From assembly GCF_058153355.1 (NCBI RefSeq), contig NZ_CM177019.1: 64,000 nt of DNA, one strand, 5' to 3'. A model generated the notes under the pieces. That model had not been told where the DNA came from and made no database searches. It was given only the letters and a program-made list of their open reading frames with translations. The position numbers and the translations under genes are program-made. Below are positions 4,385 to 54,639 of the stretch, piece after piece; position 1 is the first letter of the stretch, and each line of letters begins with the position of its first letter.

Positions 4385-4500
4385 GCCGGATGTGGCCTAC
4401 GGTTCGGCACAGACCTGTAGGCATGATAAGACGCGTCAGCGTCGCATCAGGCATTGTGCGCCAACTGCCGGATGCGGCGTGAACGCCTTATCCGGCCTAC
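4385..4500. repeat. REP/BIME cluster between yjjW and yjjV
   Basis: Three REP-like units, e.g. CTGTAGGCATGATAAGACGCGTCAGCGTCGCATCAGGC and TGCCGGATGCGGCGTGAACGCCTTATCCGGCCTAC. Confidence 0.85.
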
Positions 4501-24676: not shown

Positions 24677-24754
24677 AAAACCTCCTGTGCCCGCCAGAAC
24701 GCGGGCACAAAAAAACCGCATTACGCGGCGTGCTGTATTACGTAAAAAGACTAA

Positions 24755-25984
24755 TCAACCACCAACGCTACCTTTCCCCACCAGCGCTTTAATGGCAGAG
24801 GTGTCTTCCAGGATACAGTCAAAACGATGGAAGGCCAGAAAACCGGTCTGATCATATTCCGCGTAACGCTCAACCAGACGTTTAAGAATCATGTATCGCA
24901 CACGACGGATAATGAAGCGATCAAAGTCACCACAGAACATGAATTTTTTACCCGCCCCGATATCATCAATTTCCTGATCAATGACATACGGTACATTCAA
25001 CACTGAAGCAGGTGCCACACCAACAATATCCGGCAACCATAAAGGGCGTCCCTGACCGTCTTCCATCTCACTGATCAGTTTCAGCGTATTATCGTTAAAC
25101 GCCAGGCGGAATTTCGGTCCGCGACGATATGCAGGATCAATGCTGTGTTTCAGAGCCAGAATTTCCTGCCACTTCACCGCATTTGCCGCGGCAGTCTGTG
25201 TTGTGCCGGTCACTGATGCTGCCAGCCCTTTGGGTTGTTTAGGCGTACCAGCACCAGTCCCCTGAATCAGATAACGGGCTTCACCACGACCAATACGTTC
25301 AGCAATGCGACGGGCAAGATAAGCTTCCATATCGATCGCGCTGTCCTGCAGCAACTCATTAGACACACGAATGATTTTCGATGTCATTTTGAGCGCCCCA
25401 AGGCTTCCCATACCGAAATCGGTGTCTTCTTCACCGGCTTCTTCATTTTCGCCCAGCAGAACACCAACTTCGGAAGTACCATCAGCTGTTGCCCACTCCA
25501 TAGTGCGACCGTCAGAAGTGGTAAGAATCTGCGCCACACTGGCGATGCCACCGTAGGATTTCATCTTCTCAACAACTTTCGCCAGGAATGTTTCTGGTAC
25601 GGTATATCCGCCCTTTTCATCCTGAGCTACGCCCTGGGCACGAAGTTCACGCAACGCCTTTCGTTCTTCTGATGTCAGCTCACTGGCACCGTGACGCATC
25701 CACTTATCAAAAACCTGAGCTCGTTTCTCATCCTGTTGCGGATTGTTTTCCGGCTCAAGATTCTGACGCTGCTCTTCCTCATTGCTTTCAATGTACGCCT
25801 GATCCTGACGACGCAGTTCTTCTTCGCGTGCAATTCGTTCATCAAGCGCTTCCAGTTCGGATTTTGCTTTGTTCCACTCAGTGCGCTGCTCTTCCGTCCA
25901 TGCGTTATCACCAATTTTTTCATTCAGGGCGCGCATGTCAGTTGCGATAGTATTACGTTTCTGTTTCAGTTCATGCAGTTTCAT
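24755..25984 (-). CDS. major capsid protein, HK97 family
   Basis: 409 aa with an N-terminal coiled-coil delta-domain-like region (MKLHELKQKRNTIATDMRALNEK...). Follows the prohead protease. Confidence 0.85.
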   Translation of the reverse strand: MKLHELKQKRNTIATDMRALNEKIGDNAWTEEQRTEWNKAKSELEALDERIAREEELRRQDQAYIESNEEEQRQNLEPENNPQQDEKRAQVFDKWMRHGASELTSEERKALRELRAQGVAQDEKGGYTVPETFLAKVVEKMKSYGGIASVAQILTTSDGRTMEWATADGTSEVGVLLGENEEAGEEDTDFGMGSLGALKMTSKIIRVSNELLQDSAIDMEAYLARRIAERIGRGEARYLIQGTGAGTPKQPKGLAASVTGTTQTAAANAVKWQEILALKHSIDPAYRRGPKFRLAFNDNTLKLISEMEDGQGRPLWLPDIVGVAPASVLNVPYVIDQEIDDIGAGKKFMFCGDFDRFIIRRVRYMILKRLVERYAEYDQTGFLAFHRFDCILEDTSAIKALVGKGSVGG

Positions 25985-25994
25985 GATGTTTCCT

Positions 25995-26597
25995 TTACGC
26001 GTTAAGAAGGGTCAGGACGCGTTCACGCGCCATACGTTGATTAATGGCTTTCTGTAGCGCGCCGCTGTTGCGCGCCTCCTGCCATGCTTTCATGGAGCGA
26101 ACAGCCGAGTCAGCCTCCTGATAGGCAGGATATGTCACAGGACTGACATCCAGCAGACGGGAAAAGCGGGTTATCTCGCGAATAACAACCCCGTCCTCAT
26201 CCTGATACCACTCCTCGCCGTCACGGGCGACACGGAAAGCAAAAGATGACTGGTTAATATCTCCACGTTGCATCGGGGCCAGCACCAGATCACGAATGGT
26301 CTGTGTCTCCGGAGCCTGGATGTCATAGCGTAATCCGCGCTCATCAACTGAAAGATTCAGCGTGCCTGCTGCACTACGCCCAAGAATAAAATTAGGATCG
26401 TGGTTAAACAGTGCGCGTACATCATCACCAAGCACATCGTCAAAAGCGCCGGGCCGGATGATTTCGCGGAATGAACCAAATATCAGCTCAGAACGACAGT
26501 CAAACACCGATCCATAACCGATAATGTGCGCAGGGTTATCGTCATGCCGCTCAGCACGCACCTCACCGCTGTAACAACGGATTTCACGGTCATTCAT
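25995..26597 (-). CDS. prohead protease, HK97 (S78) family
   Basis: Start MNDREIRCYSGEV at 26597 (GAGGGAAAAACC upstream), just after the portal stop. The track ORF extends to 26654. Confidence 0.8.
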   Translation of the reverse strand: MNDREIRCYSGEVRAERHDDNPAHIIGYGSVFDCRSELIFGSFREIIRPGAFDDVLGDDVRALFNHDPNFILGRSAAGTLNLSVDERGLRYDIQAPETQTIRDLVLAPMQRGDINQSSFAFRVARDGEEWYQDEDGVVIREITRFSRLLDVSPVTYPAYQEADSAVRSMKAWQEARNSGALQKAINQRMARERVLTLLNA

Positions 26598-27846
26598 TGG
26601 TTTTTCCCTCATCATTTTTTGGGGGCTTAAAATCTCCTGCCGGGTTAGCAGCATTCACGCTTACCAGCATCTCATCCAGCCCTTCAACCGGATTCATATC
26701 CTCGAATGCGCGGGCCTCATTACGGCTCATCCATCCATCGGTAATAGCGAAGTGATAGAATTGCGCGCGCTCCTGCGGAGTTCCGCGTAAAAGCCCCGTC
26801 AGATTGAACCTGACGTAATACCCGGCGGCTAACTCAGCGCGGGTAAACAAGCGACGGTTAAGCTCCTGCTCCCAGTTCGTCACCCACGGCATCATCGTGT
26901 AGCGGACAAACTGAATCGCCTGCGCAGAAATATTGGAGAAGGTGGCTTTTTCGAGGTCATTAATCATGTGCGCAGGAATATTGAAAATACCGGCAATCAT
27001 TGAACGGTTCAGTTTCATCATGTCAATGATCTGAGCGTCAACTGGCGACACAGTCAGTGCCTTGTAATCCAGATCGGCTGGCAACAGCATGGTTTTGTTT
27101 TCCTGGCTGCGTAACGCCTGCGATGCCTTCTGCCACTGATCTTTAAGCCAGCCCCAGCTGTCCTTATTGAGTCCGCTTTTAACGGATACTATCCCCGCCG
27201 GACGGGCATTACCGCTGAAGAAGCTTTCTGTGTATTTCTGACCGCTCATCCCCATGCCTATTGTTTCGGCATGTTGCATAATCGGACTCAGCCCCATCTT
27301 CTGATTATTACCCAGCGCACGAATGTGGATCATATCGTCGGGGCTGATCGCAAACGCCCCATATTCGTTGTACAAACCGTAGGTGTATCGGCCACCAGTA
27401 TTCATCAGCGTCGTTTCCCACGGCATACAGCAATCCAGGGATATGACTTCACCGCGACGATTACGTTTCACCCAGGTATACCCATTCCCCCAGCCAAGGA
27501 TGTGACGTTGCTTCAGTTCGCGCCATTTGTAACTGGTTTGCCAGGTATTGGGCTCATCATGAACCAGATAAAACGCCGGATGATCGCGTGCGGGCTCAAC
27601 CTTCCCATTGTGCCTGCGCATAACATGCAACGGCATCTGGGCAAGGCTGGAAGACAGGACATAGATACAGGAATACACCGCAGCCAGTTTCATCGCAGTT
27701 TCAGGACTGACATAAACGTCTGCCCGGAACAGCCCATCAGTATCAACGGCATCCCCGGTTATCGGGGTGGAAGGATTCTCCAGTGCTTTACTTCTGAACA
27801 GAGCATCAAGCAGCACGCGTCCCCCTTCTGGCCATAGCCAGTGCAC
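26590..27846 (-). CDS. portal protein, HK97 family (start uncertain)
   Basis: 418 aa. Lies between the large terminase and the protease. GTG start in the track. Confidence 0.8.
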   Translation of the reverse strand: MHWLWPEGGRVLLDALFRSKALENPSTPITGDAVDTDGLFRADVYVSPETAMKLAAVYSCIYVLSSSLAQMPLHVMRRHNGKVEPARDHPAFYLVHDEPNTWQTSYKWRELKQRHILGWGNGYTWVKRNRRGEVISLDCCMPWETTLMNTGGRYTYGLYNEYGAFAISPDDMIHIRALGNNQKMGLSPIMQHAETIGMGMSGQKYTESFFSGNARPAGIVSVKSGLNKDSWGWLKDQWQKASQALRSQENKTMLLPADLDYKALTVSPVDAQIIDMMKLNRSMIAGIFNIPAHMINDLEKATFSNISAQAIQFVRYTMMPWVTNWEQELNRRLFTRAELAAGYYVRFNLTGLLRGTPQERAQFYHFAITDGWMSRNEARAFEDMNPVEGLDEMLVSVNAANPAGDFKPPKNDEGKTNE

Positions 27847-27967
27847 CCACCAGCAGTAAACCGCCGGACAGCATCAGAGCCGGAGCCATACCAAACTGCA
27901 GGTAAAACCCGCACGCAAGCAGGCCAAAACCAGCCAGCCCGATAACATCAGCAATTAGTGATTTCAT
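27806..27967 (-). CDS. small hydrophobic protein (53 aa) between terminase and portal
   Basis: ATG 27967 overlaps the terminase TGA (ATGA). [49 protein letters not shown]. Two predicted TM helices. Confidence 0.45.
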
Positions 27968-29697
27968 AGAATTAAGAGAGCATCGTCCGGATCAAGAGAT
28001 GAGAGGAAATCGTCGGGTTCTTTGAGCATTGCCCGACCGATCGCCATAATCAGTGCAACCGCACCATCGATTTTGTTTTCCGCCTGCTCCTTGACAGGCT
28101 TCACCACATCATCGTTACCCGGAATAGTTTTGCCGACCACGTTGCCGATACACCAGGTCATGATGGGATTGCCGTCATGATGAAAGCGCCCCGATTCAAT
28201 CGCCGCTTCCAGCTCTTTCATCGGATCGGACATGTTGGTGTAGTTCTGAATGATGGTGATGGGGTTCAGGTCTTCATCAGCAAGGTCATGCGACAGCCCG
28301 GTCGCCCCGAAGGGGTCGATGGGTGACTCACTGACCGGGCTGATTTTGTTCGCCGCTTTGGCCTCCTCGAGGATGTAGCGATAATCCACCTCCGCACCAG
28401 CGGTAACAGTCAGAACGCCCATTTCCACCCATTTCTGAAAGCGTTCGGCTGTCCGGCGATCTTCATTTTTCTCGACGCTGTACACCGTGTCATACGGTAC
28501 CCAGAAACGCGGAGCCACACTGTAGTAATGCGTTTTACCGTCAATCTCGCGGGTATAAAGTCGCGCCATGCTGTTCATATCCAGCTTACGCGCCAGGTCA
28601 AAGGCCAGAATGCACGGCTGCCCCTCGAACTGCTCAAGGGACAGTGATTTATCCTCGCAGCTCTGCCAGCTCACCAGGTTGAAATACGCCGAACGCGCCG
28701 ACACCCAGATATTGAGGTGTTTTGTTTTAAAGACGTTTGCCAGACGGGCGTTATTTTTCGCACGCTGCTGCTGACTTAACAAAAATTCGCGATAAACCGA
28801 CACGCCAATATTCGGGTTAGCTTTTTCCAGCACCTGCGGGTCGGTCCAGTCATCGCCTTCGTCAACGGTATAGATGATCCCGAACAATTCATCGTTGGGT
28901 ACCGACCCGTTGAGCATCTCGATAACTTCCCGCCGCTTGTCGTAGCACGGCCCCTCAATGTTGTACCCGGCGGTGGTGATGGCCCACATCAGTGGCTGAC
29001 GTCGCGCCCCCATCCCGGTAAGCATCGTGGTATAAAGCGCATCGGTGGCGTGCTCGTGATATTCATCCACGACGGCACAGTGGGGTGATGAACCATCACC
29101 GGGGTTACCGATCAGCGGTTCAAACCGCGCGCCATCCTCCGGACGGTTCATGTTTGAGGCGTTAACCTCAATCCCGAACGCTTCCGTCAGCATGGGTGTG
29201 CGTTTACACATCAGTCGAGCCGGGCGAAAGACTTCCCACGCCTGTTTCTCTGTCGTGGCACCGGAATACACTTCCGCGCCAAACTCGTTATCACAGGCAA
29301 AACAATACAGGGCAACACCGGCAGAGATTGCCGATTTGCCGTTCTTACGGGGGATTTCGGTATACACCTCCCTGAAGCGGCGCAGCCGGGAGCCTTTATT
29401 GACCCAGCCAAACGCACAGCAGATCACAAAGAGCTGCCACGGTTCCAGCGTGATGGGCATCCTCTTGAATGCCCACTCCCCCTTGGTGTGTGGCAACAGC
29501 TGAATAAATTTCGCGGCCCGTTCAGCCAGGTCCTTGTCGAAGCGGTAACGAAACGACTTACTTTTTTCCGCCATCAGGTCATCAAGATGGCGCTGGCAGG
29601 CCTGAATCACAAACTGGCAGGCCACAATCTTTCCGCGCACGACATCACGGGCATACTGATTGGCAGCATTTACGTTGGGGTAAGATTTCCGGCTCAT
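27964..29697 (-). CDS. terminase large subunit
   Basis: 577 aa. Walker-A-like IPRKNGKS. Follows the small subunit with a 4-nt overlap. Confidence 0.9.
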
Positions 29698-30197
29698 GAT
29701 TCGATGATTTTCAGAAACGGGTTAGTGGCTTTCTTCTGCCCCGCCAGGCCAATCAGACGCTGGCGGCTGCTGGGGTCGAGTCCGAGCATTGCCCCCGTGC
29801 TGCTCATCTCGGACTCCTGTTCTTTTTTGGCTGTCAGCTCCGGATTTTTGACCCTGCCGCCCATTGCGCCGGTGATGGTGTTGCCCTGTATGGCAATATT
29901 TTTCACGGCACGTCGCCAGAACTCATAGGCCACGCACCACCGCTCAAGCACCGCGAGGTCAGTCACGCACAGCAGGCCCTGACCGCAGAGTTCTTTGGTT
30001 GTCAGTTGCCACATGATCGTGGCGAGAGTGAGATCTTCTTCAGCGAACCACTCCGGTGGCTCAACACCTTTGATGGGCGTAAAAACAGGTTCATCTTTGT
30101 TCAGGGCTCGCTTGCCGGGGTTTCCGGCCAGCGCCTTGCGCGCCGTTGGCTTGGGGCGACGCCCGGAACGCCCCGCCGTTCCAGCCATATGCGGCAC
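29694..30197 (-). CDS. terminase small subunit (P27 family)
   Basis: 167 aa. [34 protein letters not shown] is typical of P27-family TerS. Confidence 0.8.
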
Positions 30198-30238
30198 TCC
30201 TGGTTAAATTTCATTTTTCGCGGGTATAAAAAAACGAT

Positions 30239-30287
30239 GGGGCGGGCAGTCCGGAAGACGTCAGGTCACAGAGATTTGACCCGCCCC
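30239..30287. other. candidate cos/packaging-site region
   Basis: 8-bp inverted repeat GGGGCGGG (30239..30246) / CCCGCCCC (30280..30287) in the 116-bp gap between HNH and terS. Confidence 0.3.
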
Positions 30288-30313
30288 TCCCCTCAGACAG
30301 TTGAGAATTATTA

Positions 30314-30664
30314 TCACTTAAGTCGTTCACGGGCCGTCTTCGCCTTATGACACGGCCAGCACAGACTCTGCAGATTACAGTCGGCATCAGTGCCGCCATG
30401 CGCTTTAGGGATGATGTGGTCAACGGTTTTCGCCTCACGCACCACACCAGCACGCAGACATAACTGACACAGGCCTTTGTCACGCTTCAGGACACGCGCG
30501 CGGATACTGTCCCACTTCGAACCATAGCCGCGCTGATGACGGGACTGACCTGGCTTGTATTGCTTCCAGCCTTCACTTTTGTGGCTTTCGCAATAGCCTG
30601 ACGGGTCAGTGGTTGTAGAGCTGCAGCCGCGAATACGGCAGGCCTTTGGGATTCGTGGTGGCAT
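30314..30664 (-). CDS. HNH endonuclease (terminase-associated)
   Basis: 116 aa. VDHIIPKAHGGTDADCNLQSLCWPCHKAKT H-N-H motif with flanking Cys pairs. Immediately upstream of terS/terL in an HK97-type module. Confidence 0.85.
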   Translation of the reverse strand: MPPRIPKACRIRGCSSTTTDPSGYCESHKSEGWKQYKPGQSRHQRGYGSKWDSIRARVLKRDKGLCQLCLRAGVVREAKTVDHIIPKAHGGTDADCNLQSLCWPCHKAKTARERLK

Positions 30665-30689
30665 TTATCAATCTCCACTCAATTCCTTT

Positions 30690-31214
30690 CTACTTCGTCA
30701 TCATTTTACTAAGTTCCTGAGGAGTCAATTCCCATGTAATAAACCGAGAAGACTCCAAAACATCATCTTCTCCGAGCAAGTATTTACGTATATTCTTCAT
30801 GAAGACCCTATAATCTGGGGCATCATTCTTGTGCGACAGAATTTTAGACAATTCCGTTGCTAGATCAGCTGGTAACCATAAAAAAGCCTCATTTGTTAAT
30901 TGTCTTAATCTTTTTCTGTCATAGGGATTTGTCATCCATTCAGACATAAGCTCGGCAATTAATGCCGACTTCATTCTTATCTCATGTTGCCTTTTTTGCT
31001 TATCCAGAATAACAGTGTTTGCTGTTTTTATTGTTTCAAGCATAACATCGTATTCATGCTTGACTGCATTCTGCACAGTGCTTTGTAGCCAAGTTCTCCC
31101 AATAAAAAACATTAAAGGGAGTATTACAACCCAAGCGATTACATTTGCTATCCAACCAGCGTCCATATCTATCCTCATGAAAATAAAAATGATTAACACA
31201 CAAGCTGTTAGCAT
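30690..31214 (-). CDS. AT-rich moron: membrane-anchored protein of unknown function
   Basis: 174-aa ORF (start may be M13/M17). N-terminal hydrophobic helix AGWIANVIAWVVILPLMFFIG, then a helical soluble domain. 22 G/C in the 60 nt at 30901..30960 versus about 50% in neighbours. Confidence 0.6.
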   Translation of the reverse strand: MLTACVLIIFIFMRIDMDAGWIANVIAWVVILPLMFFIGRTWLQSTVQNAVKHEYDVMLETIKTANTVILDKQKRQHEIRMKSALIAELMSEWMTNPYDRKRLRQLTNEAFLWLPADLATELSKILSHKNDAPDYRVFMKNIRKYLLGEDDVLESSRFITWELTPQELSKMMTK

Positions 31215-31225
31215 ATAACATTATT

Positions 31226-31483
31226 TCAATGATTACTTCTTTTGCTTTCTATTTTGCGGATTGCAACTTTATCTTGATTACATTGATTTAATGCTGATAA
31301 CAAATTCACATTCAAATCAAGACTTGCACCATACGTCAGTGGGTTGGGTATAAACGGTACAGGAGTATCAGAAGTCAAGCTGACTGGTAGTGGTGTCTTC
31401 GGAATGCTCACGTAAACTGTTCGCGTACTTCCGCAACCTGTCAGCAGCGGCAGCAGGTACAGGACGGGCAGCACAATCATCAT
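31226..31483 (-). CDS. o-spanin (Rz1-like lipoprotein), overlapping Rz
   Basis: MMIVLPVLYLLPLLTGC lipobox, then a Pro-rich mature region. Starts inside Rz in another frame and extends beyond it. Part of track ORF 31226..31711. Confidence 0.7.
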   Translation of the reverse strand: MMIVLPVLYLLPLLTGCGSTRTVYVSIPKTPLPVSLTSDTPVPFIPNPLTYGASLDLNVNLLSALNQCNQDKVAIRKIESKRSNH

Positions 31484-31760
31484 CCGCAACAGCCACTTTA
31501 ATATCTTCCTGGGTTCTCTGTGACTCCAGTGCGATCTGCTGTTTTGCATGCTGGTTAGCCTCCAGAACTGTATTGACGATTTGCATTGATTGCAGGACGT
31601 TATTGGTAATGGCAGTTGCTGATTCAGCATTTTGTACAGCCTCATCAGCACGTTTCTTTTCGTACTGATATTTGCTGTAGTAGTAGTTGGCTGACCAGAT
31701 GAAAGAACCAATGGCAGTAACGAAAAAAGCAGCGATAATCAGCTTATAACTCAACTTCAT
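31368..31760 (-). CDS. i-spanin (Rz-like)
   Basis: 130 aa. N-terminal TM (LIIAAFFVTAIGSFIW) and a coiled-coil periplasmic part. Follows the endolysin. Confidence 0.8.
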   Translation of the reverse strand: MKLSYKLIIAAFFVTAIGSFIWSANYYYSKYQYEKKRADEAVQNAESATAITNNVLQSMQIVNTVLEANQHAKQQIALESQRTQEDIKVAVADDDCAARPVPAAAADRLRKYANSLREHSEDTTTSQLDF

Positions 31761-32220
31761 TTACCACCCCACCAGCCTCTTTAAATCGGGCAATCAGGTC
31801 ACCGATTTTATGTTCATACTGACCGTAACCTGCGCCCGGCAGTGAAGCCCAGATATTGCTGCAACGATCGATAGCCTGACGGATATCACCGCGATCAATC
31901 ATCGGTAAAGCGCCACGCTCTTTAATCTGCTGCAATGCCACTGCGTCCTGGCTTTTGGGGGAGAAGTCTTTCAGACCAAGCTGTTTACGGTAAGCATCCC
32001 ACCATCGGGAAAGAATCTGGTAGCGTCCAGCAGCCGTTGATTTAAGTTTTGGGTTTAGCGTGACAAGTTTGCGAGGGTGGTCGGAGTAATCAGTGAAGAG
32101 TTCACCACCGACAATAACGTCATAACCGTGGTTACATGTCGGTTGCCGTCCATTATCCGTTCCTTCTGACCATGCCACCATATCGAGGAAAGCTTTACGC
32201 TGGGAATTTAGTACCTGCAT
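31744..32220 (-). CDS. endolysin, lambda R-type lytic transglycosylase
   Basis: QRKAFLDMVAWSEGTDNGRQ...GYDVIVGGELFTDYSDHPRKLVTLNPKL is nearly identical to lambda R as I remember it. Confidence 0.9.
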   Translation of the reverse strand: MQVLNSQRKAFLDMVAWSEGTDNGRQPTCNHGYDVIVGGELFTDYSDHPRKLVTLNPKLKSTAAGRYQILSRWWDAYRKQLGLKDFSPKSQDAVALQQIKERGALPMIDRGDIRQAIDRCSNIWASLPGAGYGQYEHKIGDLIARFKEAGGVVNEVEL

Positions 32221-32223
32221 AAA

Positions 32224-32559
32224 TTACTCCTTAGAGCCACCAAACTTGTTACCGATTACTCTCATTGCAGCCCCACGAATTGCATCGACCCCAATCAGCC
32301 CCACCCCACCACCAATGGCAACAGAAAGCGATTTAGGCCATCCGACATACTCAAGCGCGGATGCAAAGGTCAGCGTCAGAGCGCCACAGAGCAAAATTTC
32401 GAGTGTTTTTCGTTTCCAGCCGCCACCACCACCAAAATAGGCAATACGCAAACCAGCCATAACAATCGACATAATCACTGCGCCCAGCGGCGTATCTCCA
32501 CGCCACCAGCTCTGGAACAACTCCAGCCAGTCCGGCCAGGTATTTGGGTTATGAGGCAT
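32224..32559 (-). CDS. holin
   Basis: 111 aa with 2-3 hydrophobic helices and a charged C-terminus. Immediately upstream of the endolysin. Confidence 0.75.
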   Translation of the reverse strand: MPHNPNTWPDWLELFQSWWRGDTPLGAVIMSIVMAGLRIAYFGGGGGWKRKTLEILLCGALTLTFASALEYVGWPKSLSVAIGGGVGLIGVDAIRGAAMRVIGNKFGGSKE

Positions 32560-32636
32560 TTAGTCATCTCTCACCTCGCGATTATTTGCGGGTGCTGTGT
32601 TGGAAATAAAAAGGCCAAGCAACGTGGCCACCAGAA

Positions 32637-33689
32637 TTATTTCCCCACCAGTTCACTTACCTCTTTCACCGTCTGGTTAAACCGATCTGACTCAAACTCA
32701 ACACCTAACGCCCGACGCCCCAGCGCCATTGCTGCTTTTATTGTGGAACCGGATCCCATAAAGAAATCAGCAACCAGATCGCCTGGTCGACTACTGGCAT
32801 TGATTATTTGCCGGAGCATATCCGCAGGCTTCTCACACGGATGTTTACCCGGGTAGAACTGAACGGGTTTATGCGTCCAGACGTCGGTATAAGGCACGGA
32901 AACTGATACGGAGAAATAGCGCCGGAGAGTTTTAAACTCATCCAGCAATTCAGAATATTTGCGATTCAGTGAATCATAAGATGCCACCAGCTGGTGGTGT
33001 GTGTGTTCCAGTTGTTGTTCCTGAAACTTCTCTGCCGCTATACGGGAAAACAGTGCCTGCAACTTTCGGTAGTCAGCCTCGTTCGGCAACTGCCACTGAC
33101 TGGCACCAAACCAGTGGGAAACCATATTTTTCTTACCAGTGGCTTCGGCAATCTGTTTTGCCGTTATCCCCAGTTCGGCACGAGCATCCCTGAAATACGA
33201 AATCAGCGGTGCCATTATGTGCTGTTTGAGTTCCCTTTCTTTTGCCGCATAGCCGTCACTTTTGCCGCGATATGGCCCCTGGTAATGTTCAGCAAACAGA
33301 ACGCGCTCTGTTGCGGGAAAATATGCGCGCAGACTTTCTTTATTACACCCGTTCCATCGTCCGGACGGCTTCGCCCAGATGATATGGTTAAGCACGTTGA
33401 AACGTTCACGCATCATGATCTCGATATCAGATGCGAGGCGATGTCCACAGAACAGGTAAAGGCTTCCGGCAGGTTTCAACACCCGCCAGAACTGGGCCAG
33501 ACAATGGTCCAGCCACTTAAGGTAATCTTCGTCCCCTTTCCACTGATTGTCCCAGCCGTTGGGTTTCACCTTGAAGTACGGCGGATCGGTAACAATCAGG
33601 TCAATGGAATCATCAGGCAGGGACTGAATAAAATACAGGCAATCAGCGTTGATTAAATCAGCACTGTTTATTTTTACAGTATTTTTCAT
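32637..33689 (-). CDS. orphan DNA methyltransferase (beta-class N6A/N4C; DPPY then FxGxG)
   Basis: IVTDPPYF near the N-terminus and DFFMGSGST near the C-terminus. No adjacent restriction gene. Confidence 0.8.
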   Translation of the reverse strand: MKNTVKINSADLINADCLYFIQSLPDDSIDLIVTDPPYFKVKPNGWDNQWKGDEDYLKWLDHCLAQFWRVLKPAGSLYLFCGHRLASDIEIMMRERFNVLNHIIWAKPSGRWNGCNKESLRAYFPATERVLFAEHYQGPYRGKSDGYAAKERELKQHIMAPLISYFRDARAELGITAKQIAEATGKKNMVSHWFGASQWQLPNEADYRKLQALFSRIAAEKFQEQQLEHTHHQLVASYDSLNRKYSELLDEFKTLRRYFSVSVSVPYTDVWTHKPVQFYPGKHPCEKPADMLRQIINASSRPGDLVADFFMGSGSTIKAAMALGRRALGVEFESDRFNQTVKEVSELVGK

Positions 33690-39828: not shown

Positions 39829-40409
39829 GCGTTAGTTTCTCCACAGACACAAAACGCCACGACGCCCGGAGCTGCACACTCGCGGGCGTCACTCTTTTCT
39901 GGAGCGCAAAAGATTTTGTAGACCAGTGCTGCATGCTCCTGGAGCTTCGAAATTGACAGATACAACTCATCATTAATTACTGTCTGCTCGTGTGGCTCCA
40001 CTACCCCATCTTCGATTGCCGAACGAATCTGCTTTGAGTAACTCCCGATCTGTTCGATGACTTCCAGCAGACGCTGGTTTATATCGGCGTTCTCTACTTC
40101 CTCAATTTCAGGAAGCGATACAAACACCCCACCAGCAGACTGTGCGACAGCATCCGCAATGTAGTGAGTGCCAGCCGCGCGCTGTAAAATCATTGCCCAT
40201 CCCAGCGGGAAAATCTGATCGCCATCTGCACGAAGGCGGTTGAATAAAGCGTTCTCTGTTACATCCAGCCACTCAGCAGCTTCAGCGTAACCTCCCGGCA
40301 ACGCCGCGATAGTTTTTCTGACAGCTTTCACGTACCACTCAGGCTGTTTTTCTACTTTCCAGTGATGCTTACCCACGGCTATCTCCTTAAAACTGTGGTT
40401 ACTTTCCAT
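39825..40409 (-). CDS. CII-like / YmfL-family phage regulatory protein
   Basis: 194 aa. Second gene of the rightward early operon, after cro. Resembles e14 YmfL (from memory). Confidence 0.55.
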
Positions 40410-40647
40410 CAGATAAGTCTTTAATCTTTTGAAAAATATCTGGACGTAATTTTTCTTTTGATACGCCAGTGGTCATTTCAATGAATATCGAGAGCTTTGC
40501 AGGGGGACGCTTTTCTCTGTTCAACCAGTTCCAGACATGTTGTTGCTTTACTAAACGACCACTGCTGGCTGTGAGCTTCCGAGCCAATTCTGATTGACCA
40601 CCAGCCAGAGCGATTGCCTCTGATAAGGCTAATTGCTCAGGTGTCAT
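40399..40647 (-). CDS. Cro-like HTH repressor
   Basis: 82 aa. HTH ...GGQSELARKLTASSGRLVKQQHVWNW... Divergent from cI across the operator region. Confidence 0.75.
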   Translation of the reverse strand: MTPEQLALSEAIALAGGQSELARKLTASSGRLVKQQHVWNWLNREKRPPAKLSIFIEMTTGVSKEKLRPDIFQKIKDLSDGK

Positions 40648-40784: not shown

Positions 40785-41471
40785 GTGAAAACATTGGCAG
40801 AAAGACTAAAAAGCGAAAGAGAAAAAGCAGGAATGAGTCAGGCGCAACTAGCTGAAAAAATTGGACTTTCACAACAATCCGTAGCGAAAATCGAGAATGG
40901 AGAAACTCAACAGCCTCGGAAAATTAAAGAGATTGCTAAAGTGTTAGGGGTTTCTCAAAAGTGGTTGCAATTGGGCATTGAGGATAACGCGTCTTTCCCA
41001 AACCTTGTTGTAAAGGAGGCTGAAAGTACAACATTAGATCCTGACATTTTTGCAAACATTCCTGTCCTAGATGTCGAATTATCAGCGGGTAATGGATGTT
41101 TGGCTGAAATAGTTGAATCAACTGTAGACTGGTTCCCGCTAAGAAGGATTGATTTAAGGAAAGCTGGTGTATGTGTCTCCAATGCAAAGATCGTAAAAAT
41201 TTGGGGTAATAGTTTACTACCTGTACTTAACAATGGAGATTTTGTTGCTGTTGATGTTTCCCAAACAGTTCCTATTCGTGATGGGGATCTTTATGCTATA
41301 CGTGATGGCGTATTACTTAGAGTTAAAATATTGATCAATTTACCTGACGGTGGTCTGATTCTAAGAAGTTTCAATAAAGATGAGTATCCAGATGAAATAC
41401 TCACCTTCGAAGATAGGCGTTCCAGAATTCACGTTATAGGTAGAGTATTCTGGTCATCGCGCACTTGGTAA
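40785..41471 (+). CDS. CI-type repressor (XRE HTH plus S24 LexA-like peptidase domain)
   Basis: GTG start with GAGGGGG upstream. HTH MSQAQLAEKIGLSQQSVAKIENG. C-terminal GNSLLPVL and LRVKIL (Ser/Lys dyad context). Confidence 0.85.
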   Translation: MKTLAERLKSEREKAGMSQAQLAEKIGLSQQSVAKIENGETQQPRKIKEIAKVLGVSQKWLQLGIEDNASFPNLVVKEAESTTLDPDIFANIPVLDVELSAGNGCLAEIVESTVDWFPLRRIDLRKAGVCVSNAKIVKIWGNSLLPVLNNGDFVAVDVSQTVPIRDGDLYAIRDGVLLRVKILINLPDGGLILRSFNKDEYPDEILTFEDRRSRIHVIGRVFWSSRTW

Positions 41472-41654: not shown

Positions 41655-41712
41655 CATAAAGTTGTTGACAACAACCAAAACAACAACTAGATTACAACTT
41701 AAAGATGTTGCA
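41655..41712 (+). promoter_or_regulatory. OL/PL-like operator-promoter
   Basis: TTGACA (41665..41670) - 17 nt - TAGATT (41688..41693). Perfect 15-bp palindrome GTTGTTGACAACAAC (41661..41675) over the -35. Operator blocks shared with OR. Confidence 0.7.
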
Positions 41713-41803
41713 GTAACGAACAGGCAGGACGCCCACGAAGTAGCCGCCGGTGGCGTATGAATGACCGGATGATTCGTTAAATACTATGTGTAAGAGAGCG
41801 CAA

Positions 41804-42006
41804 ATGAACCGTTATTTCACATGCTCGTTTTGTGGCGCAAACGAGCTGCAGGCAAAAAAATCATCGCCAAAGGCGGAAAAGATGAAGTTGCTATCTGCTC
41901 TGAGTGCGTAGTCTTGTGTGTTGGGGCATTAATCAATATCAGCACAACTATTCAGTTCACACCAAATGAGAATGCGCCTTTAGATGCGCGGAAATCTGGA
42001 GGTTAA
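41804..42006 (+). CDS. ClpX-type zinc-ribbon protein split over two frames at an A7 run (67 aa if -1 shifted)
   Basis: Frame 0 from ATG 41804 reads MNRYFTCSFCGANELQAKK then stops after 35 aa. The -1 frame (track ORF 41821..42006) continues IIAKGGKDEVAICSECVVLC. Together they give CSFCG...ICSECV, as in the ClpX N-terminal domain. Confidence 0.55.
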
Positions 42007-42095
42007 AGAACAAAATGAAAGTCCAGATTTTAAACAATAACTGTGAAGTCGTTTGGGCGTAAAACATGACCGCGCGTAGACCAAGGGAGGAAAAA

Positions 42096-42272
42096 GTGGG
42101 AATAGTTAGAAATCAAGCAGATATATTGAAAATCAGCTCTGAATTGCTTGGAGTTTTGAAAAGTGAGCTCACCGCACATGGCATCGAGCCCACTGACGAA
42201 AATTTAAGTTGGGTTTTGTCGATTATTCAACAATCACTCAAGCCCAGCCTCAGCAAACTTTTTATCGAGTAG
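42096..42272 (+). CDS. small hypothetical protein (58 aa)
   Basis: GTG 42096 with GGGAGG 5 nt upstream. In frame with track ORF 42066..42272. Confidence 0.45.
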   Translation: MGIVRNQADILKISSELLGVLKSELTAHGIEPTDENLSWVLSIIQQSLKPSLSKLFIE

Positions 42273-42424
42273 TGCTTCGAACTTATCGTAAAGCTTGCTT
42301 ATGTCGTCTATCGGGTTTTCTGACGTACTGTAATTTTTATCTGATGTCATGGCAGCAGTCTGATATGCAGTGTGAGTCTTAACCGATAGTTGGAATAAAT
42401 AAAGAATTTTTTCTTCTTTGGTCA
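42234..42424 (-). CDS. small acidic hypothetical protein (63 aa), antisense to the early-left operon
   Basis: ATG 42424 with GAAGGAAA 7 nt upstream. MTKEEKILYLFQLSVKTHTAYQ... Its 3' end overlaps the 42096..42272 ORF by 39 nt. Confidence 0.5.
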
Positions 42425-42680
42425 TAACTATTTCCTTCTTGGCTATATGAAAACACCAAGATACCACCGAGCCTGAAGTGGTGAAAAGACAGGCACATAA
42501 CAGCTAAGTATTTTCAACCAGAGAGAATCCTTAGCGTTGTGGTGAATGCGGCTCAGCGCACGCGGGTTAAGGTTGAGGTTGACAGTCGACCTTCTGTGGA
42601 TACCCACCCGCCTGGTGTGCAACCTTCGCCAGGCACCGGGAGGCACCCGGCACCACAACTTTATGCTGTGTGTAGTCCTC

Positions 42681-42727
42681 GCGGTACCAGTTTGTACACT
42701 TGCTTCCGGCTGGTACCGCTCTTTTTA
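42681..42727 (+). terminator. intrinsic terminator within the early-left operon
   Basis: GCGGTACCAG (42681..42690) / CTGGTACCGC (42710..42719), a perfect 10-bp stem with a 19-nt loop, followed by TCTTTTTAC. Confidence 0.7.
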
Positions 42728-42815
42728 CAAAACAGAGAAGGGCATCACCGGACGACGGGCTCATAACCCAATCCATCCGGGCGGCTGCCACCGCAGGTGT
42801 TCTTCTCTGTTTTGT
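42727..42815 (+). ncRNA. candidate structured RNA element (14-bp long-range stem enclosing sub-hairpins)
   Basis: ACAAAACAGAGAAG (42727..42740) is the exact reverse complement of CTTCTCTGTTTTGT (42802..42815). Internal CCGGA/TCCGG and GCGG/CCGC stems. No credible ORF. Confidence 0.35.
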
Positions 42816-42863
42816 GGAGAAACCAACCGACCTTGCAGGGTCGATATGATGAGGAGCAGCAAA

Positions 42864-43226
42864 ATGGCTAGCGAACGCAGTACTGATGTGCAGGCATTTA
42901 TCGGGGAGCTGGACGGCGGCGTATTTGAAACCAAAATCGGCGCAGTTCTCAGTGAAGTCGCTTCCGGTGTGATGAACACGAAAACCAAAGGTAAGGTCTC
43001 GCTCAACCTGGAAATCGAACCATTTGATGAGAACCGTGTGAAAATCAAACACAAACTCTCATATGTTCGCCCGACTAACCGCGGGAAAATTTCCGAAGAA
43101 GACACCACCGAAACACCGATGTATGTCAATCGCGGTGGTCGCCTGACTATTCTGCAGGAAGACCAGGGACAATTACTGACTCTTGCCGGTGAACCTGACG
43201 GAAAACTACGCGCAGCAGGTCATTAA
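42864..43226 (+). CDS. YfdP-like hypothetical protein (120 aa)
   Basis: ATG 42864 with GAGGAG 7 nt upstream. The track ORF 42546..43226 is an implausible N-terminal extension through the structured region. Confidence 0.65.
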   Translation: MASERSTDVQAFIGELDGGVFETKIGAVLSEVASGVMNTKTKGKVSLNLEIEPFDENRVKIKHKLSYVRPTNRGKISEEDTTETPMYVNRGGRLTILQEDQGQLLTLAGEPDGKLRAAGH

Positions 43227-43291
43227 TATCGTTCTTAATTAACTGATTATTTATCTCATCACTGAATATCTTTATATAGTGAGGACTTATT

Positions 43292-44116
43292 ATGTCTCAG
43301 AACTTAGACGCAACCGCAATTAATCAAATCCATGCCCTTATTTCTGCTCAGGGTGTTAATGAAATTATTAGTAAGATTGGTGCCGATGCTGTGGCATTGC
43401 CTGAGAATTTCCGCATTCATGATCTGGAAAAATTTAATTTAAATCGCTTCCGTTTCCGTGGTGCGCTTTCCACTGCCAGCATCGATGACTTTACCCGTTA
43501 TTCTAAAGATCTTGCAGATGAAGGCACCCGCTGCTTTATCGATGCCGATAATATGCGTGCCGTCAGTGTGCTTAACCTGGGTACTATTGATGAACCAGGT
43601 CACGCAGATAACACCGCCACTCTCAAACTGAAAAAGACAGCACCGTTCTCTGCTCTGTTGTCTGTTAATGGCGAGCGTAACTCCCAAAAGTCACTGGCAG
43701 AATGGATTGAAGACTGGGCCGACTACCTTGTGGGCTTTGATGCTAATGGTGACGCCATTCAGGCAACCAAAGCGGCTGCGGCGATCCGTAAAATCACAAT
43801 TGAAGCGAACCAGACCGCTGATTTTGAAGACAATGACTTCAGCGGCAAACGCTCCCTGATGGAGTCTGTCGAAGCGAAGACCAAAGACATTATGCCAGTG
43901 GCATTTGAATTTAAATGCGTTCCGTTTGAAGGCCTGAAAGAACGTCCGTTTAAATTACGCCTCAGCATTATCACTGGCGATCGTCCTGTACTGGTTCTGC
44001 GCATTATTCAGCTGGAAGCGGTGCAGGAAGAAATGGCTAACGAATTTCGTGATCTGCTTGTTGAGAAATTTAAAGACAGCAAAGTAGAAACCTTTATTGG
44101 TACTTTCACCGCCTGA
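43292..44116 (+). CDS. DUF2303 / YfdQ-like protein
   Basis: 274 aa. Gene order P-Q-R-S as in the CPS-53 yfdPQRS cluster (from memory). Confidence 0.65.
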
Positions 44117-51711: not shown

Positions 51712-51772
51712 AAAACCTGCAAGTTAGCCCTGTCGGGTAGCAGCGATTCATTACTGTCTCGCCGCCCCCTAA

Positions 51773-51806
51773 GAACGGTACGTGCGAGTTTCCCCGCATA
51801 CCGCTC
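51773..51806 (-). ncRNA. group II intron domain V
   Basis: GAGCGGTATGCGGGGAAACTCGCACGTACCGTTC: AGC triad, GAAA tetraloop and a compensatory C>G/G>C swap relative to the canonical GAGCCGUAUGCG...CGCACGUACGGUUC. Confidence 0.85.
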
Positions 51807-51812
51807 AAGCCT

Positions 51813-53492
51813 TTATAAGCCTCCACCTTGTGGGAGACCAGCGTCATTACTATGTAGTTGTCGATGGCAGTTGGGATGGAGTAGGACTAAATTGCTCACA
51901 TCATCGCTACCGCCAAGAGATTTCTTGAGCAAATGATGAACATTCCATCCTGTATCGCGATTAATCGGTTGCTCACATAAAGGGCAGCGCGATCCTTGCC
52001 TTTTCCATATAGCGAGAATCCTTTTCTGCCCCTGTTGGGATTTCTTCCATGAGTAGTCCAGCCTTCTTTCGAAGTATGTTTCCCACTCGGGATCATATGG
52101 ATTTGCCGTTCCCTTTATTTTTATATAGCGATTAATATGGATGTCGCTGGCCCGGGACAGAACATATTTCCTACCCTCCGGATCGACTCCATAAAATCGA
52201 CCATGACACATTTTTATTGTCGTGTGGTACTTTCGGAAGATCCATCTCCGGCCTTTGCCGGGATGTCTCCTTCTGCACCACTGCCAGATTTTGCGCCAGA
52301 TTTGGTTGTCGACATAGTTAAATGTCTCTGCCGATGCTACATGTTGGTGATAGTTTGCCCACCCGGTGATGATTGGATTAAGCAGATTTATTAGCACCCA
52401 TGCAGGAACCGTTCGGTTACCTTCAATAGTCTCTCTGATCTTGCTAAGAAATTGTTTAACGTTTTTCTTGGCTGGTCTGATTATGAGTTTTCTACCGAAG
52501 CGTCGGACGTGCTGCCCAAGGAAATCAAATCCGTCAGTAATGTGAGTGATGACCGTTTTCTCTTCGGATAACGTCAGCCCTCTTTCTGCAAGAAATGATT
52601 TCACCAACGGAAGAACATTCTCCTCCAGAAGTTCTTTCGACTTTCCGGAAATGATGAAATCATCAGCATACCGGACGAAGTGAACCTGATGTTTCCTGAA
52701 TGTTTTTGAGCGTTTCGGACCAAAGCGATTTTGCAGCAGTCTTTCCAGTCCATCCAGGGCCATGTTTGCCAGAACTGGAGATATGATTCCTCCCTGGGGT
52801 GTACCCGAGAGAGTTTTGCTGAATATGCTTTTTTCGATGATCCCGGCTTTCAACCAATTACGGAGTATTTGCTTGTCCATAGGAATATTTTCAAGCAGCC
52901 ACTCGTGGCTAATGTGTTCAAAGCATCCTTTAATATCGCCTTCCAGAACCCATTTCGAGGCGTTCCGGGAACTATACATATTACATACCTGTTGAATGGC
53001 GTCAGCCGTACATCGCGCTGGTCTGAAACCATAACTGTTGTGATCTGCATTAGTTTCCGATACAGGCTCCAATCCCAGCAGATGCAGGGCCTGCATTGCC
53101 CTGTCAAGCATGACGGGGATTCCTAATGGTCTTTTCTTGCCATTAGATTTGGGTATAAAAACTCTTTTTAGCGGTAGGGGCTTGTACCCTTTTCGCCTGA
53201 GTTTGAATATCGCTTCCCATTTTGATTCTGGAGTACTCCAGATTTGACCATCAACTCCGGGGGTTTTACGCCCGCTATTTTCCGTAACTCGTTTCACCGC
53301 CAGTGCTCTGGCGCTGAATGAGCGAACCAGCAATCGTTGCAATCTACCGACTGTACGCCATTGCTGGTTACATGCCGCCTTTGCGATTCTTGTCTGTATG
53401 GTTTTAACGTGTTGATGGCATTTCTTCCAGTTAATGGAATGCCAACCTTTTCCGTTGATGACCGCAGTTACATTGTTAGATGTAATTTTCAT
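51813..53492 (-). CDS. group II intron-encoded protein (RT, maturase X, DNA-binding and HNH endonuclease domains)
   Basis: RT motifs incl. FVRYADDFII. C-terminal HHLLKKSLGGSDDVSNLVLLHPNCHRQLH. Probable start MKITSNNV at 53492 (the track ORF extends to 53555). Confidence 0.9.
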   Translation of the reverse strand: MKITSNNVTAVINGKGWHSINWKKCHQHVKTIQTRIAKAACNQQWRTVGRLQRLLVRSFSARALAVKRVTENSGRKTPGVDGQIWSTPESKWEAIFKLRRKGYKPLPLKRVFIPKSNGKKRPLGIPVMLDRAMQALHLLGLEPVSETNADHNSYGFRPARCTADAIQQVCNMYSSRNASKWVLEGDIKGCFEHISHEWLLENIPMDKQILRNWLKAGIIEKSIFSKTLSGTPQGGIISPVLANMALDGLERLLQNRFGPKRSKTFRKHQVHFVRYADDFIISGKSKELLEENVLPLVKSFLAERGLTLSEEKTVITHITDGFDFLGQHVRRFGRKLIIRPAKKNVKQFLSKIRETIEGNRTVPAWVLINLLNPIITGWANYHQHVASAETFNYVDNQIWRKIWQWCRRRHPGKGRRWIFRKYHTTIKMCHGRFYGVDPEGRKYVLSRASDIHINRYIKIKGTANPYDPEWETYFERRLDYSWKKSQQGQKRILAIWKRQGSRCPLCEQPINRDTGWNVHHLLKKSLGGSDDVSNLVLLHPNCHRQLHSNDAGLPQGGGL

Positions 53493-54092
53493 ACATGTCA
53501 TCCAAAGAAACCTTCGCAGATGTTTCGCAATTAAAGACCAGATGGAAGTCAGCACGGTTTCCCGTTAAGGCAAATATTGAACCTCTATCCGCACGATTAC
53601 AGTCCGGCTTTCGCTTTTTCCATCCTCCTTTACCCGCATTCTCATCAGTTTGCCTTACGGTGCCCCTGCCACTAGGGCGAGAATTCGGGCTTACCAAGTT
53701 CCGACCAACATACAAAGAACGGGTTAGGTTCTGTCTATCCGCCGGGGGAGTTATTGTCCATGTATTCCCACTACGAACAGGAATAGCCTTACCCCTTACC
53801 TTTTGGTGCAAGCCTATCAGCATCTTTGGCTCGTTCTCTGTTACGACGTTTAACGACAGTTCACTATGTTAACCATACCGCCCAGCCTAGCGCTCTCGCC
53901 GCATGATGCTTGTAGCGATCAGGTTTTCTCACGATTAACTGAAGCAATATTTGCTAAGCTACATTGTCCCAAGGGCTTCAGACAGAGCCGTTACCAGCTT
54001 TGCCTGCCTCAGTAGGCTACAACTAATGGAATAGTTGGTTTTATATAAATAATTTATCAAAACAATATGTTGGACGACTTCTTGTCGCACTC

Positions 54093-54180
54093 GTAGGCCA
54101 GATAAGACGCGCCCGCGTCGCATCTGGCATCTGCACCCAAATACCGTGTCGGATGCGGCATGAACGCCTTATCCGACCTA
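54093..54180. repeat. two REP elements flanking the intron 5' side
   Basis: GTAGGCCAGATAAGACGCGCCCGCGTCGCATCTGGC (54093..54128) and GTCGGATGCGGCATGAACGCCTTATCCGACCTA (54148..54180). Confidence 0.8.
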
Positions 54181-54317: not shown

Positions 54318-54404
54318 GCGAAGGTGGCGGAATTGGTAGACGCGCTAGCTTCAGGTGTTAGTGTCCTTACGGACGTGGGGGTTCAAGTCCCCCCCCTCGC
54401 ACCA
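54318..54404 (+). tRNA. leuQ: tRNA-Leu (CAG)
   Basis: 87 nt, GCGAAGGTGGCGGAATTGGTAGACGCG...GGTTCAAGTCCCCCCCTCGCACCA. Long variable arm, anticodon loop CTTCAGGTG, encoded CCA. Confidence 0.95.
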
Positions 54405-54432
54405 AAAACCACGTTGATATTGCTCGCACTGG

Positions 54433-54519
54433 GCGAAGGTGGCGGAATTGGTAGACGCGCTAGCTTCAGGTGTTAGTGTTCTTACGGACGTGGGGGTTCA
54501 AGTCCCCCCCCTCGCACCA
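54433..54519 (+). tRNA. leuP: tRNA-Leu (CAG)
   Basis: Same 87-nt sequence with one variable-arm difference (GTGTTC vs GTGTCC), which keeps pairing as G-U. Confidence 0.95.
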
Positions 54520-54552
54520 AACGAGGCGATATCAAAAAAGTAAGATGACTGT

Positions 54553-54639
54553 GCGAAGGTGGCGGAATTGGTAGACGCGCTAGCTTCAGGTGTTAGTGTC
54601 CTTACGGACGTGGGGGTTCAAGTCCCCCCCCTCGCACCA
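54553..54639 (+). tRNA. leuV: tRNA-Leu (CAG)
   Basis: Identical to the first copy. Third gene of the tandem array. Confidence 0.95.

Follow-up and report, generated by a model that had tools for sequence, protein, structure and literature searches.

The early-left leader and its coding status

The 64-kb stretch of DNA analysed in this work (the window) contains, at positions 42470-42863 of the + strand, a densely structured sequence situated in front of a yfdP-like gene. In our view it belongs to the leader of the early-left (PL) operon in a lambdoid prophage of the SfV/mEp460 type, does not code for protein and holds two adjacent tRNA-like modules: a probable small RNA (sRNA) of the STnc100 family that would end at an intrinsic terminator (module 1), and a three-way-junction RNA that starts right behind it (module 2). 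Taken as a whole, this explanation has in our opinion an even chance of being correct. The sequence was inspected over 41800-43400.

The immunity region is located upstream and includes a Cro-type protein gene (40402-40647, - strand) and a cI-type repressor gene (40785-41468, + strand, phrog_4 match). Downstream of the latter, a consensus scan has found a PL-like sigma-70 promoter, TTGACA-17-TAGATT (41665-41693, + strand, 10 of 12 matches), which is the likely source of + strand transcripts across the region. The promoter is followed by small phage open reading frames (ORFs), one of them on the - strand, and, further downstream, by homologues of yfdP, yfdQ, yfdR and yfdS. Among the phrog profile matches between PL and yfdP there is no recognisable N-like protein, in agreement with an earlier reading made from the sequence alone (the sequence-only reading). 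The first gene after the leader is the yfdP-like one (42864-43226, + strand, 120 amino acids, phrog_204 match with E = 1e-49), preceded by the Shine-Dalgarno (SD) sequence GAGGAG at 42852-42857; it corresponds to the annotated yfdP of E. coli genomes.

The region was found in 2780 of 5426 complete E. coli genomes, i.e. in about half of them, and the PGAP entry at its position is a hypothetical or a frameshifted protein. In the K-12 prophage CPS-53 (L126, 2748-3104, the yfdO-yfdP intergenic region) both RNA modules are lost while yfdP is kept; similarity to the window starts only at TATGATGAGGAG, 18 nt upstream of the yfdP ATG. K-12 transcript datasets are therefore uninformative on this locus.

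A protein-coding role, either for the 226-aa ORF at 42546-43226 or for the hypothetical-protein ORFs of PGAP, could be proposed on the grounds of these annotations and of a 106-codon open frame fused in frame to yfdP. However, outside E. coli and Shigella this extension does not stay open: it is interrupted after 1-67 codons in all 17 loci tested from other genera. YfdP homologues all start at an equivalent M-x-x-(E/D)-(R/K), and the YfdP profile match begins at residue 1 of the 120-aa form. In addition, an intrinsic terminator and an Rfam RNA match lie inside the region, and related loci differ by indels that are not multiples of three. We regard a coding role as scarcely credible, and the earlier statement that no credible ORF lies between the small AT-rich ORFs and the yfdP-like gene holds. 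Recognition of the region as RNA thus corrects its current annotation.

Folding of 42470-42863 (+ strand) gave a minimum free energy of -169.7 kcal/mol compared with -131.9 +/- 6.5 kcal/mol for dinucleotide shuffles (z = -5.8, none of 100 shuffles being as good), so the structure is real and a composition artefact is ruled out. The - strand of the same stretch folds with z = -4.1. All the stems listed in the sequence-only reading were recovered by sequence inspection and an inverted-repeat search, and they are described below with the elements to which they belong. What that reading took for one element is in fact two neighbouring modules, at 42506-42728 (module 1) and 42727-42843 (module 2 together with a further hairpin, P4); their tRNA-like nature and the Rfam family of the first one had been missed.

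Module 1 and the STnc100 family

A cmscan search, which the sequence-only reading had recommended, matched 42506-42728 (+ strand) to STnc100 (RF02076) and returned nothing for module 2. The match scores 49.8 bits (the gathering score is 47; E = 9.8e-8 for the whole window) and covers model positions 1-206, i.e. the full length of the model including the terminator hairpin. Hence the earlier idea of an sRNA ending at the terminator fits the first two thirds of the stretch, while the last third is a separate RNA.

Three parts can be distinguished in module 1: the multi-branch scaffold, the trailer, which is single-stranded, and the terminator. The scaffold (42536-42659) is closed by a perfect 9-bp long-range inverted repeat absent from the earlier list of stems (GTTGTGGTG/CACCACAAC at 42536-42544/42651-42659, giving the closing stem GUUGUGGUG/CACCACAAC). 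It encloses several hairpins, among them GCCTGG/CCAGGC at 42610-42634. As in STnc100, a multi-branch core is shut by a UGGUG/CACCA long-range stem, and the CACCGGGAGGCACCCGGCACCA block is aligned to the model at high posterior probability. The scaffold is followed by the conserved trailer GCUGUGUGUAGUC (42665-42677) and by the predicted intrinsic terminator (42681-42726), which corresponds to the 3' hairpin of the model: a perfect 10-bp stem with seven G-C pairs (42681-42690/42710-42719), an atypically long 19-nt loop and the U-tract UCUUUUU directly after the stem (42720-42726). A simple terminator scan missed it because the loop exceeds the 8-nt limit of the scan.

STnc100 is a multicopy family, with copies known from other prophages. 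E. coli EDL933 carries eleven of them, which are expressed, and STnc100_4 was verified by Northern blotting (PMC5331693). The Hfq-bound EcOnc27 overlaps with a copy that lies 75 nt downstream of stx2B (PMC12370729, PMC12711010), and a 2026 preprint relates STnc100 to the PasD sRNAs of pathogenic E. coli prophages (bioRxiv 10.64898/2026.05.13.724894). Module 1 shares with these RNAs the UGGUGAAU...CACCGGGAGGCACCCGGCACCA frame, the multi-branch core with its long-range closing stem, the 3' terminator with a U-tract and the prophage location. It differs in that its internal hairpins depart from the consensus, that the described copies reside in the late region, e.g. beside Q or 75 nt past stx2B (PMC12370729; bioRxiv 10.64898/2026.05.13.724894), while module 1 is situated in the early-left leader, and that it lacks a promoter of its own in the consensus scan. 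Judging by these features, module 1 can be considered a divergent, marginal member of the STnc100/PasD prophage sRNA family.

The trailer GCUGUGUGUAGUC is present in exact form in 51 of the 159 fetched loci, including those with different scaffold inserts. Since it is kept across different inserts, the pattern fits a seed region, and the trailer is a candidate seed of the putative sRNA. An antisense target of GCUGUGUGUAGUC was sought in the window, and none was found beyond chance. Antiterminator pairing of the trailer with the 5' strand of P1, the outer stem of module 2, was also considered and dropped: certain loci have the complementarity (ACACAC/GUGUGU), whereas the window lacks it.

Comparison of related loci has revealed a common frame consisting of GUUGUGGUGAAU, a variable multi-hairpin insert, a hairpin, CACCACAAC, the trailer GCUGUGUGUAGUC and the terminator. 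The closing stem of this frame covaries at positions 7-10 across loci, as exemplified by the pairs GUUGUGAC/GUCACAAC and GUUGUGGUU/AACCACAAC. In the window, the hairpin CCGGG-AGGCA-CCCGG (42636-42650), known already as a CCGGG/CCCGG stem from the sequence-only reading, abuts the 3' strand of the closing stem in the same way as the T arm of a tRNA abuts its acceptor stem. By their arrangement, the STnc100 closing stem and this hairpin occupy the acceptor-stem and T-arm positions of a tRNA.

Three other loci illustrate this likeness. In L104, L087 and L098 the same frame encloses an RNA which scores 43.9, 40 and 29.5 bits, respectively, on the Rfam tRNA model, although ARAGORN rejects all three. 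These slot RNAs are about 125 nt long (L104, 1077-1203, - strand; L087, 1800-1925, + strand; L098, 4364-4488, - strand). Acceptor stem, D arm and T arm are all canonical in them, the anticodon loop gives way to one of 4 nt, and an extra arm of about 55 nt is present, tipped by a 7-nt CAU loop in L098 (AUCAUAA) and L104 (UUCAUAA). The tRNA-shaped scaffold provides a structural rationale for the STnc100/PasD prophage sRNAs, and we found no mention of a tRNA-like frame in this family in the searchable literature.

In four loci (L008, L044, L087 and L014) more modules were noticed upstream of the STnc100-slot RNA. They have canonical T arms (GGTTCGATTCC) and, by eye, long P1-type stems as well (GCAACGACGAGAGCA/TGCTCTCTTCGTTG). 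Some phages may therefore carry arrays of at least three tRNA-like modules in the PL leader.

A three-way-junction RNA between the terminator and yfdP

Module 2 is an 89-nt RNA (42727-42815, + strand). The perfect 14-bp inverted repeat reported for it earlier (42727-42740/42802-42815) grows to a 20-bp outer stem, P1 (42727-42746/42796-42815). Inside P1 are the P2 arm and the P3 hairpin GCGG/CCGC (42781-42784/42791-42794), the length of which varies among copies. The P2 arm is built of the helix P2a (42748-42754/42774-42780), an internal loop and the short helix P2b, GGG/CCC (42757-42759/42767-42769), capped by the 7-nt loop CUCAUAA (42760-42766). P1 is directly followed by an unpaired conserved segment, GGAGAAAC(C/U)AAC (42816-42827, alignments A4 and A9), and then by the hairpin P4, CGACC-UUGCAG-GGUCG (42828-42843), seen already in the sequence-only reading. 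The unpaired segment has a 1-nt deletion in L151, L143, L150 and L152, and its tolerance to such a deletion means that it is non-coding.

A search of Rfam 15 at E <= 10 over 42000-43300 returned nothing for 42727-42863 on either strand, and only chance-level matches elsewhere, apart from STnc100 on module 1. When 42400-42900 was compared with phages by BLAST, many of them, including mEp460, Stx2c phages, SfV, SfII and SfIV, shared just the terminator, 42727-42863 and yfdP; a 51-nt core recurred in Klebsiella phages beside annotated tRNAs. Scanning of viral contigs for GGGCTCATAAYCCAATCC has found at least 120 stretches which, together with the phage loci already fetched, amount to at least 87 distinct sequences. 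All of these copies share the junction fold: P1; P2a leading through the internal loop to P2b with CUCAUAA; and P3.

The sequence-only reading had named lack of covariation of the stems in homologues as a possible refutation; the helices of module 2 and P4 do covary, like the closing stem of the module 1 scaffold. Among 22 class A representatives (alignment A1), 94.3% of cells are paired compared with 40-54% in slid controls, with nine two-sided pair changes. As the viral-contig loci had been picked by their loop sequence, the test was repeated on loci found by YfdP protein homology alone, taken from one-genome-per-species contigs (A8; 15 of the inspected loci plus the window, 16 sequences in all). 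Here 93.0% of cells are paired (slid controls, 33-55%), and there are 14 two-sided pair changes. For the P2 arm in all classes (A3, 39 sequences) the corresponding values are 93.5%, 29-56% and four two-sided changes, and for the P4 hairpin (A9, 20 sequences) 95.7% and 31-68%, with two-sided changes in four of the five pairs. None of 500 shuffles did as well in any of the four tests. Because MAFFT mis-registered the 3' strands in A3, which precluded a joint model of classes A and B, A3 was used for the P2 arm only. Alignment A7 (all model matches) was left out of the counting of pairs, since some of its matches lie on the reverse strand of P1, which is nearly palindromic.

The strand is settled by the covariance model of module 2 (R1), for which the window gives 102.8 bits in the + and 37.8 bits in the - orientation. 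Among 30 YfdP-homology loci, R1 finds module 2 in 19, on the + strand and just upstream of the yfdP start. The genera involved are Escherichia/Shigella, Leclercia, Kosakonia, Enterobacter, Mangrovibacter, Phytobacter, Atlantibacter, Superficieibacter, Scandinavium and Pseudocitrobacter. Module 2 is thus a widespread, covariation-supported RNA motif, apparently undescribed and covered by no Rfam family, the second conserved RNA motif defined at this locus. No account of this motif was met in the searchable literature on tRNA-like or anticodon-mimic elements of lambdoid prophages or on yfdP. A weak second R1 match (20.9 bits, E of about 1e-3) was observed in a Klebsiella-type phage contig (L066, 1311-1396, - strand), approximately 70 nt downstream of a class B element. 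Going by this match, it may be a diverged second copy of module 2.

The structures could also be decaying relics of phage tRNA genes, or fortuitous hairpins, without any present function. Lambdoid phages commonly carry tRNA-like remnants, CPS-53 of K-12 has lost the whole region but kept yfdP, and the YfdP loci of Providencia, Moraxella and Buttiauxella lack module 2. On the other hand, compensatory changes preserve four helices in at least nine genera, and one and the same core is found within three different outer stems. The terminator junction hardly varies, and the + strand fold is far better than its shuffles. We therefore find decay or chance an improbable explanation.

At its tip (GGGCUCAUAACCC), the P2 arm reproduces exactly the anticodon stem-loop of the initiator tRNA of E. 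coli. Alignment with metZ of NC_000913 gives 14 identical nt (CGGGCUCAUAACCC, 42756-42769), and the anticodon hairpin is the sole local match of R1 to metZWV. The loop CUCAUAA and the GGG/CCC pairs are the same as in metZ; further out, the two outer stem pairs are mismatches (A.A and C.A) and a longer helix prolongs the arm. In the YfdP-homology set, most loci have the loop CUCAUAA.

A further link with tRNAs is seen in class B of module 2, found in Klebsiella phages downstream of Q. Here the same P2 and P3 are shut by a 6-bp stem, GGCCUG/CAGGCC, followed by (A/G)CCA, giving 71 nt in all, and the element starts 6 nt after a genuine tRNA-Asn, tRNA-Arg(UCU) or tRNA-Thr. It has in common with tRNA genes its place in phage tRNA arrays and the acceptor-like stem with RCCA, and the CUCAUAA loop with its three G-C pairs is identical to that of tRNA-fMet. 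In contrast to a tRNA, the anticodon-like arm of module 2 contains an internal loop and reaches a length of about 12 layers, and there is neither a D arm nor a T loop. The 20-bp outer stem of the window copy leads into GGAGAAAC instead of a discriminator and CCA, so that an acceptor-like stem with CCA is found in class B only.

A true tRNA was considered as well and rejected. RF00005 has no match in 42000-43300 at E <= 10, ARAGORN calls only three tRNA-Leu genes in the window, and in its standard and metazoan-mitochondrial modes it did not call module 2 of any class in 14 loci. Module 2 is tRNA-like or tRNA-derived, not a tRNA.

The position of module 2 relative to the terminator is almost fixed. 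Among the matches listed, P1 starts 0-2 nt after a hairpin-preceded T-tract in 77 of 79 distinct class A copies, and the hairpins themselves differ in sequence (GGUACCGC, GAUGCCGC, CGCCAGCC, GGUGGGCAC). A minimal order of elements is found in L030: cI with a terminator; operators and the promoter TTGACC-17-TACATT; a leader of about 55 nt; a hairpin with a U-tract; module 2; P4; and the SD with yfdP. Inside the terminator, only weak, non-conserved hexamers were seen by eye where module 2 could have a promoter of its own.

This position bears on the suggestion of the sequence-only reading that the stretch is a put-like cis-acting antitermination RNA, which would bind the transcribing RNA polymerase, cause read-through of terminators and so replace N. 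The put RNA of HK022 has two stem-loops, about 70 nt, just after the promoter, occurs once per early operon (putL and putR) and acts on downstream terminators (PMC9378689). Like put, module 2 is a highly structured RNA in the early operon leader of a lambdoid phage with no N-like protein in evidence, and in L030 it lies within approximately 110 nt of a promoter. However, being located downstream of its terminator in nearly all copies, it cannot act on that terminator. R1 has one match in the window, about 1030 nt after the PL-like promoter, and related loci have one copy each, with no partner on the PR side. Moreover, module 2 is an 89-nt three-way junction and not two stem-loops, and the same core resides inside tRNA arrays with a CCA tail. 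R1 has no match (E <= 10) in HK022 24000-33500 (L124 and L125), where putL and putR were not explicitly located in the record. A put-like function, whether of module 2 or of the whole stretch, is in our view very unlikely.

The distance from the end of module 2 to the yfdP start is a constant 39-46 nt in 17 inspected loci (E. coli and other genera), and this raises the question of whether module 2 and P4 constitute an element of the yfdP 5' untranslated region (5'-UTR) that controls translation or mRNA stability, be it through an SD-like GGAG, through P4 beside the SD or through a short upstream frame. Covariation of P4 would fit such a role, as would L051 and L042, where the 3' half of P4 doubles as SD for the gene that follows. 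The window also has an 11-codon GUG frame (42814-42849) running from the end of P1 across P4, with its TGA overlapping an ATG at 42846 (ATGA) which is in frame with yfdP. But the frame is not conserved: the 1-nt deletion mentioned above brings a stop after three codons in L151, L143, L150 and L152, and the stop position varies. Besides, the element is also found before unrelated genes and in tRNA arrays without an adjacent gene start, and 5'-UTR control leaves both the initiator-tRNA hairpin and the terminator junction unexplained. We consider it rather unlikely. A conserved reading frame after P1 was specifically ruled out by frame-breaking indels within GGAGAAAC.

The ATGA arrangement is absent as a conserved feature in other genera. 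Judging by the window alone, YfdP could start at 42846 (MMRSSKMASER...).

Possible processing and mimicry, and neighbouring features

We infer that the two modules function as a terminated sRNA and a tRNA-like leader element which is either excised or acts as a mimic. RNA polymerase starting from PL would transcribe module 1 and, if it stops at 42726, release a discrete sRNA of about 200 nt, judging by analogy with STnc100/PasD members. This RNA would have a tRNA-like 5' domain, the conserved single-stranded trailer and a 3' end of a hairpin and oligo-U suited to Hfq. Such a build is usual for Hfq-dependent sRNAs and is documented for other STnc100/PasD copies.

Module 2 would be made only on read-through transcripts, on which P1, with its first base directly after the U-tract, can be completed. 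The long P1 helix, or the 6-bp acceptor-like stem with RCCA in class B, may serve as a processing signal. Two cuts can be envisaged: by RNase P at the 5' edge of P1, or by RNase III within P1, a 20-bp duplex being a plausible target. For RNase P to cleave before an acceptor-like stem, a helix beginning precisely at the junction with the U-tract would be required, and P1 has that position. Either would produce the same mature 3' end of the sRNA as termination does, a defined 5' end of the yfdP mRNA and a free tRNA-sized RNA. Class B would reach the same product via ordinary tRNA processing. Even as a mere processing signal, module 2 would allow the phage to couple sRNA production and mRNA expression from one promoter.

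For this logic, the metY leader and lambda sib are probably the closest precedents. In E. coli, metY (tRNA-fMet2) heads the metY-rimP-nusA-infB operon and is freed by RNase III as a real, chargeable tRNA. In both metY and our case, a structure of the initiator-tRNA type heads an operon and is transcribed together with it, with partial terminators and a long duplex nearby whose cleavage would part a small RNA from the mRNA; module 2, however, is not a chargeable tRNA, and RNase III cleavage of P1 is only a supposition on our part. In lambda sib/tI, the extended duplex after int contains the terminator hairpin itself. There too, stopped and read-through transcripts differ in their 3' structure, as only the latter complete a long duplex cleavable by an endonuclease, whereas here the long duplex is a separate helix which starts after the U-tract and is situated in a 5' leader.

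Since the anticodon-like arm is invariant while all the surrounding helices are replaced, the released RNA may be read by a factor that recognises initiator tRNA. This leads to the possibility of a decoy or mimic of the initiator-tRNA anticodon arm: a competitive substrate or inhibitor of a VapC-type tRNase, or a binder of methionyl-tRNA synthetase (MetRS) or of the 30S P site. The 14 nt shared with metZ include the three G-C pairs, and the loop stays the same while P1, P2a and P3 undergo compensatory replacement. An enterobacterial VapC cleaves initiator tRNA (PMC5175351), the carriers of module 2 include the Shigella flexneri phages SfV, SfII and SfIV, and phage tRNAs acting against host tRNases are an established theme (PMC10264068). 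We find a VapC-type tRNase the most exciting candidate partner of the anticodon-like arm. Yet A37-A38 are changed (CUCAUUC) or CAU is lost in some genera, and the flanking AAUCC is equally conserved without being tRNA-fMet sequence. The mimic on its own has, we think, a slim chance of being right.

If true, the decoy could for instance shield tRNA-fMet from VapC-type anticodon nucleases or occupy a tRNA-fMet-specific site on MetRS or the 30S subunit, and a cellular or defence factor reading the initiator-tRNA hairpin would make module 2 a new kind of phage-encoded tRNA mimic. A bolder speculation, which we hold to be improbable as it stands, is that lambdoid phages of enterobacteria make a small excised tRNA-like decoy or mimic RNA early after induction, in which nothing but the copied initiator-tRNA anticodon arm is invariant, and that the STnc100/PasD sRNAs and module 2 belong to one unrecognised natural class of tRNA-scaffolded RNAs.

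Several points weigh against the overall explanation of the leader as a terminated sRNA followed by a tRNA-like element. Module 1 passes the STnc100 threshold by a small margin, and the gathering score is not reached by near-identical copies in L004 and L128 or by the slot RNAs that have diverged further. The consensus scan revealed no promoter-like site immediately before module 1, which may therefore be just part of the PL transcript. In the YfdP-homology set, four loci have the module 2 loop altered to CUCAUUC and four lack one G of the stem, while CAU is missing from Scandinavium alone; both tRNA detectors, as described above, reject module 2. For this locus, termination and its efficiency, processing and Hfq binding are extrapolations, and a partner of the anticodon-like arm is a supposition. 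Finally, a processing role needs no invariant anticodon-like loop, and a mimic role leaves the obligatory terminator junction unexplained, so that neither half accounts for everything.

Some features in the vicinity are worth recording. A phrog_5259 gene (41786-42006, + strand) encodes CxxC...CxxC motifs, resembling by eye a ClpX-type zinc finger. It is split across two frames at an A7 run (approximately 41853-41860), with the N-terminal 29 residues in one frame and the rest in +2; a frameshift mutation, programmed slippage or an error of sequencing might each account for the split. A 63-aa ORF with a good SD (42237-42425, phrog_2605, E = 1e-33) lies on the - strand within the early-left operon, shortly before module 1, and PL transcripts would pass through it in antisense.

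Outside the leader, Rfam matches to group II intron domains on the - strand (Intron_gpII at 51732-51808 and group-II-D1D4-7 at 53891-54038) indicate, as far as such matches go, a complete group II intron of about 2.3 kb (51732-54038). The three tRNA-Leu(CAG) genes called by ARAGORN are arranged in tandem at 54318-54639 (+ strand). Two naRNA4/REP-type elements were also found, both on the - strand: one at 4420-4497 and the other at 54096-54178, between the group II intron and the tRNA-Leu genes.

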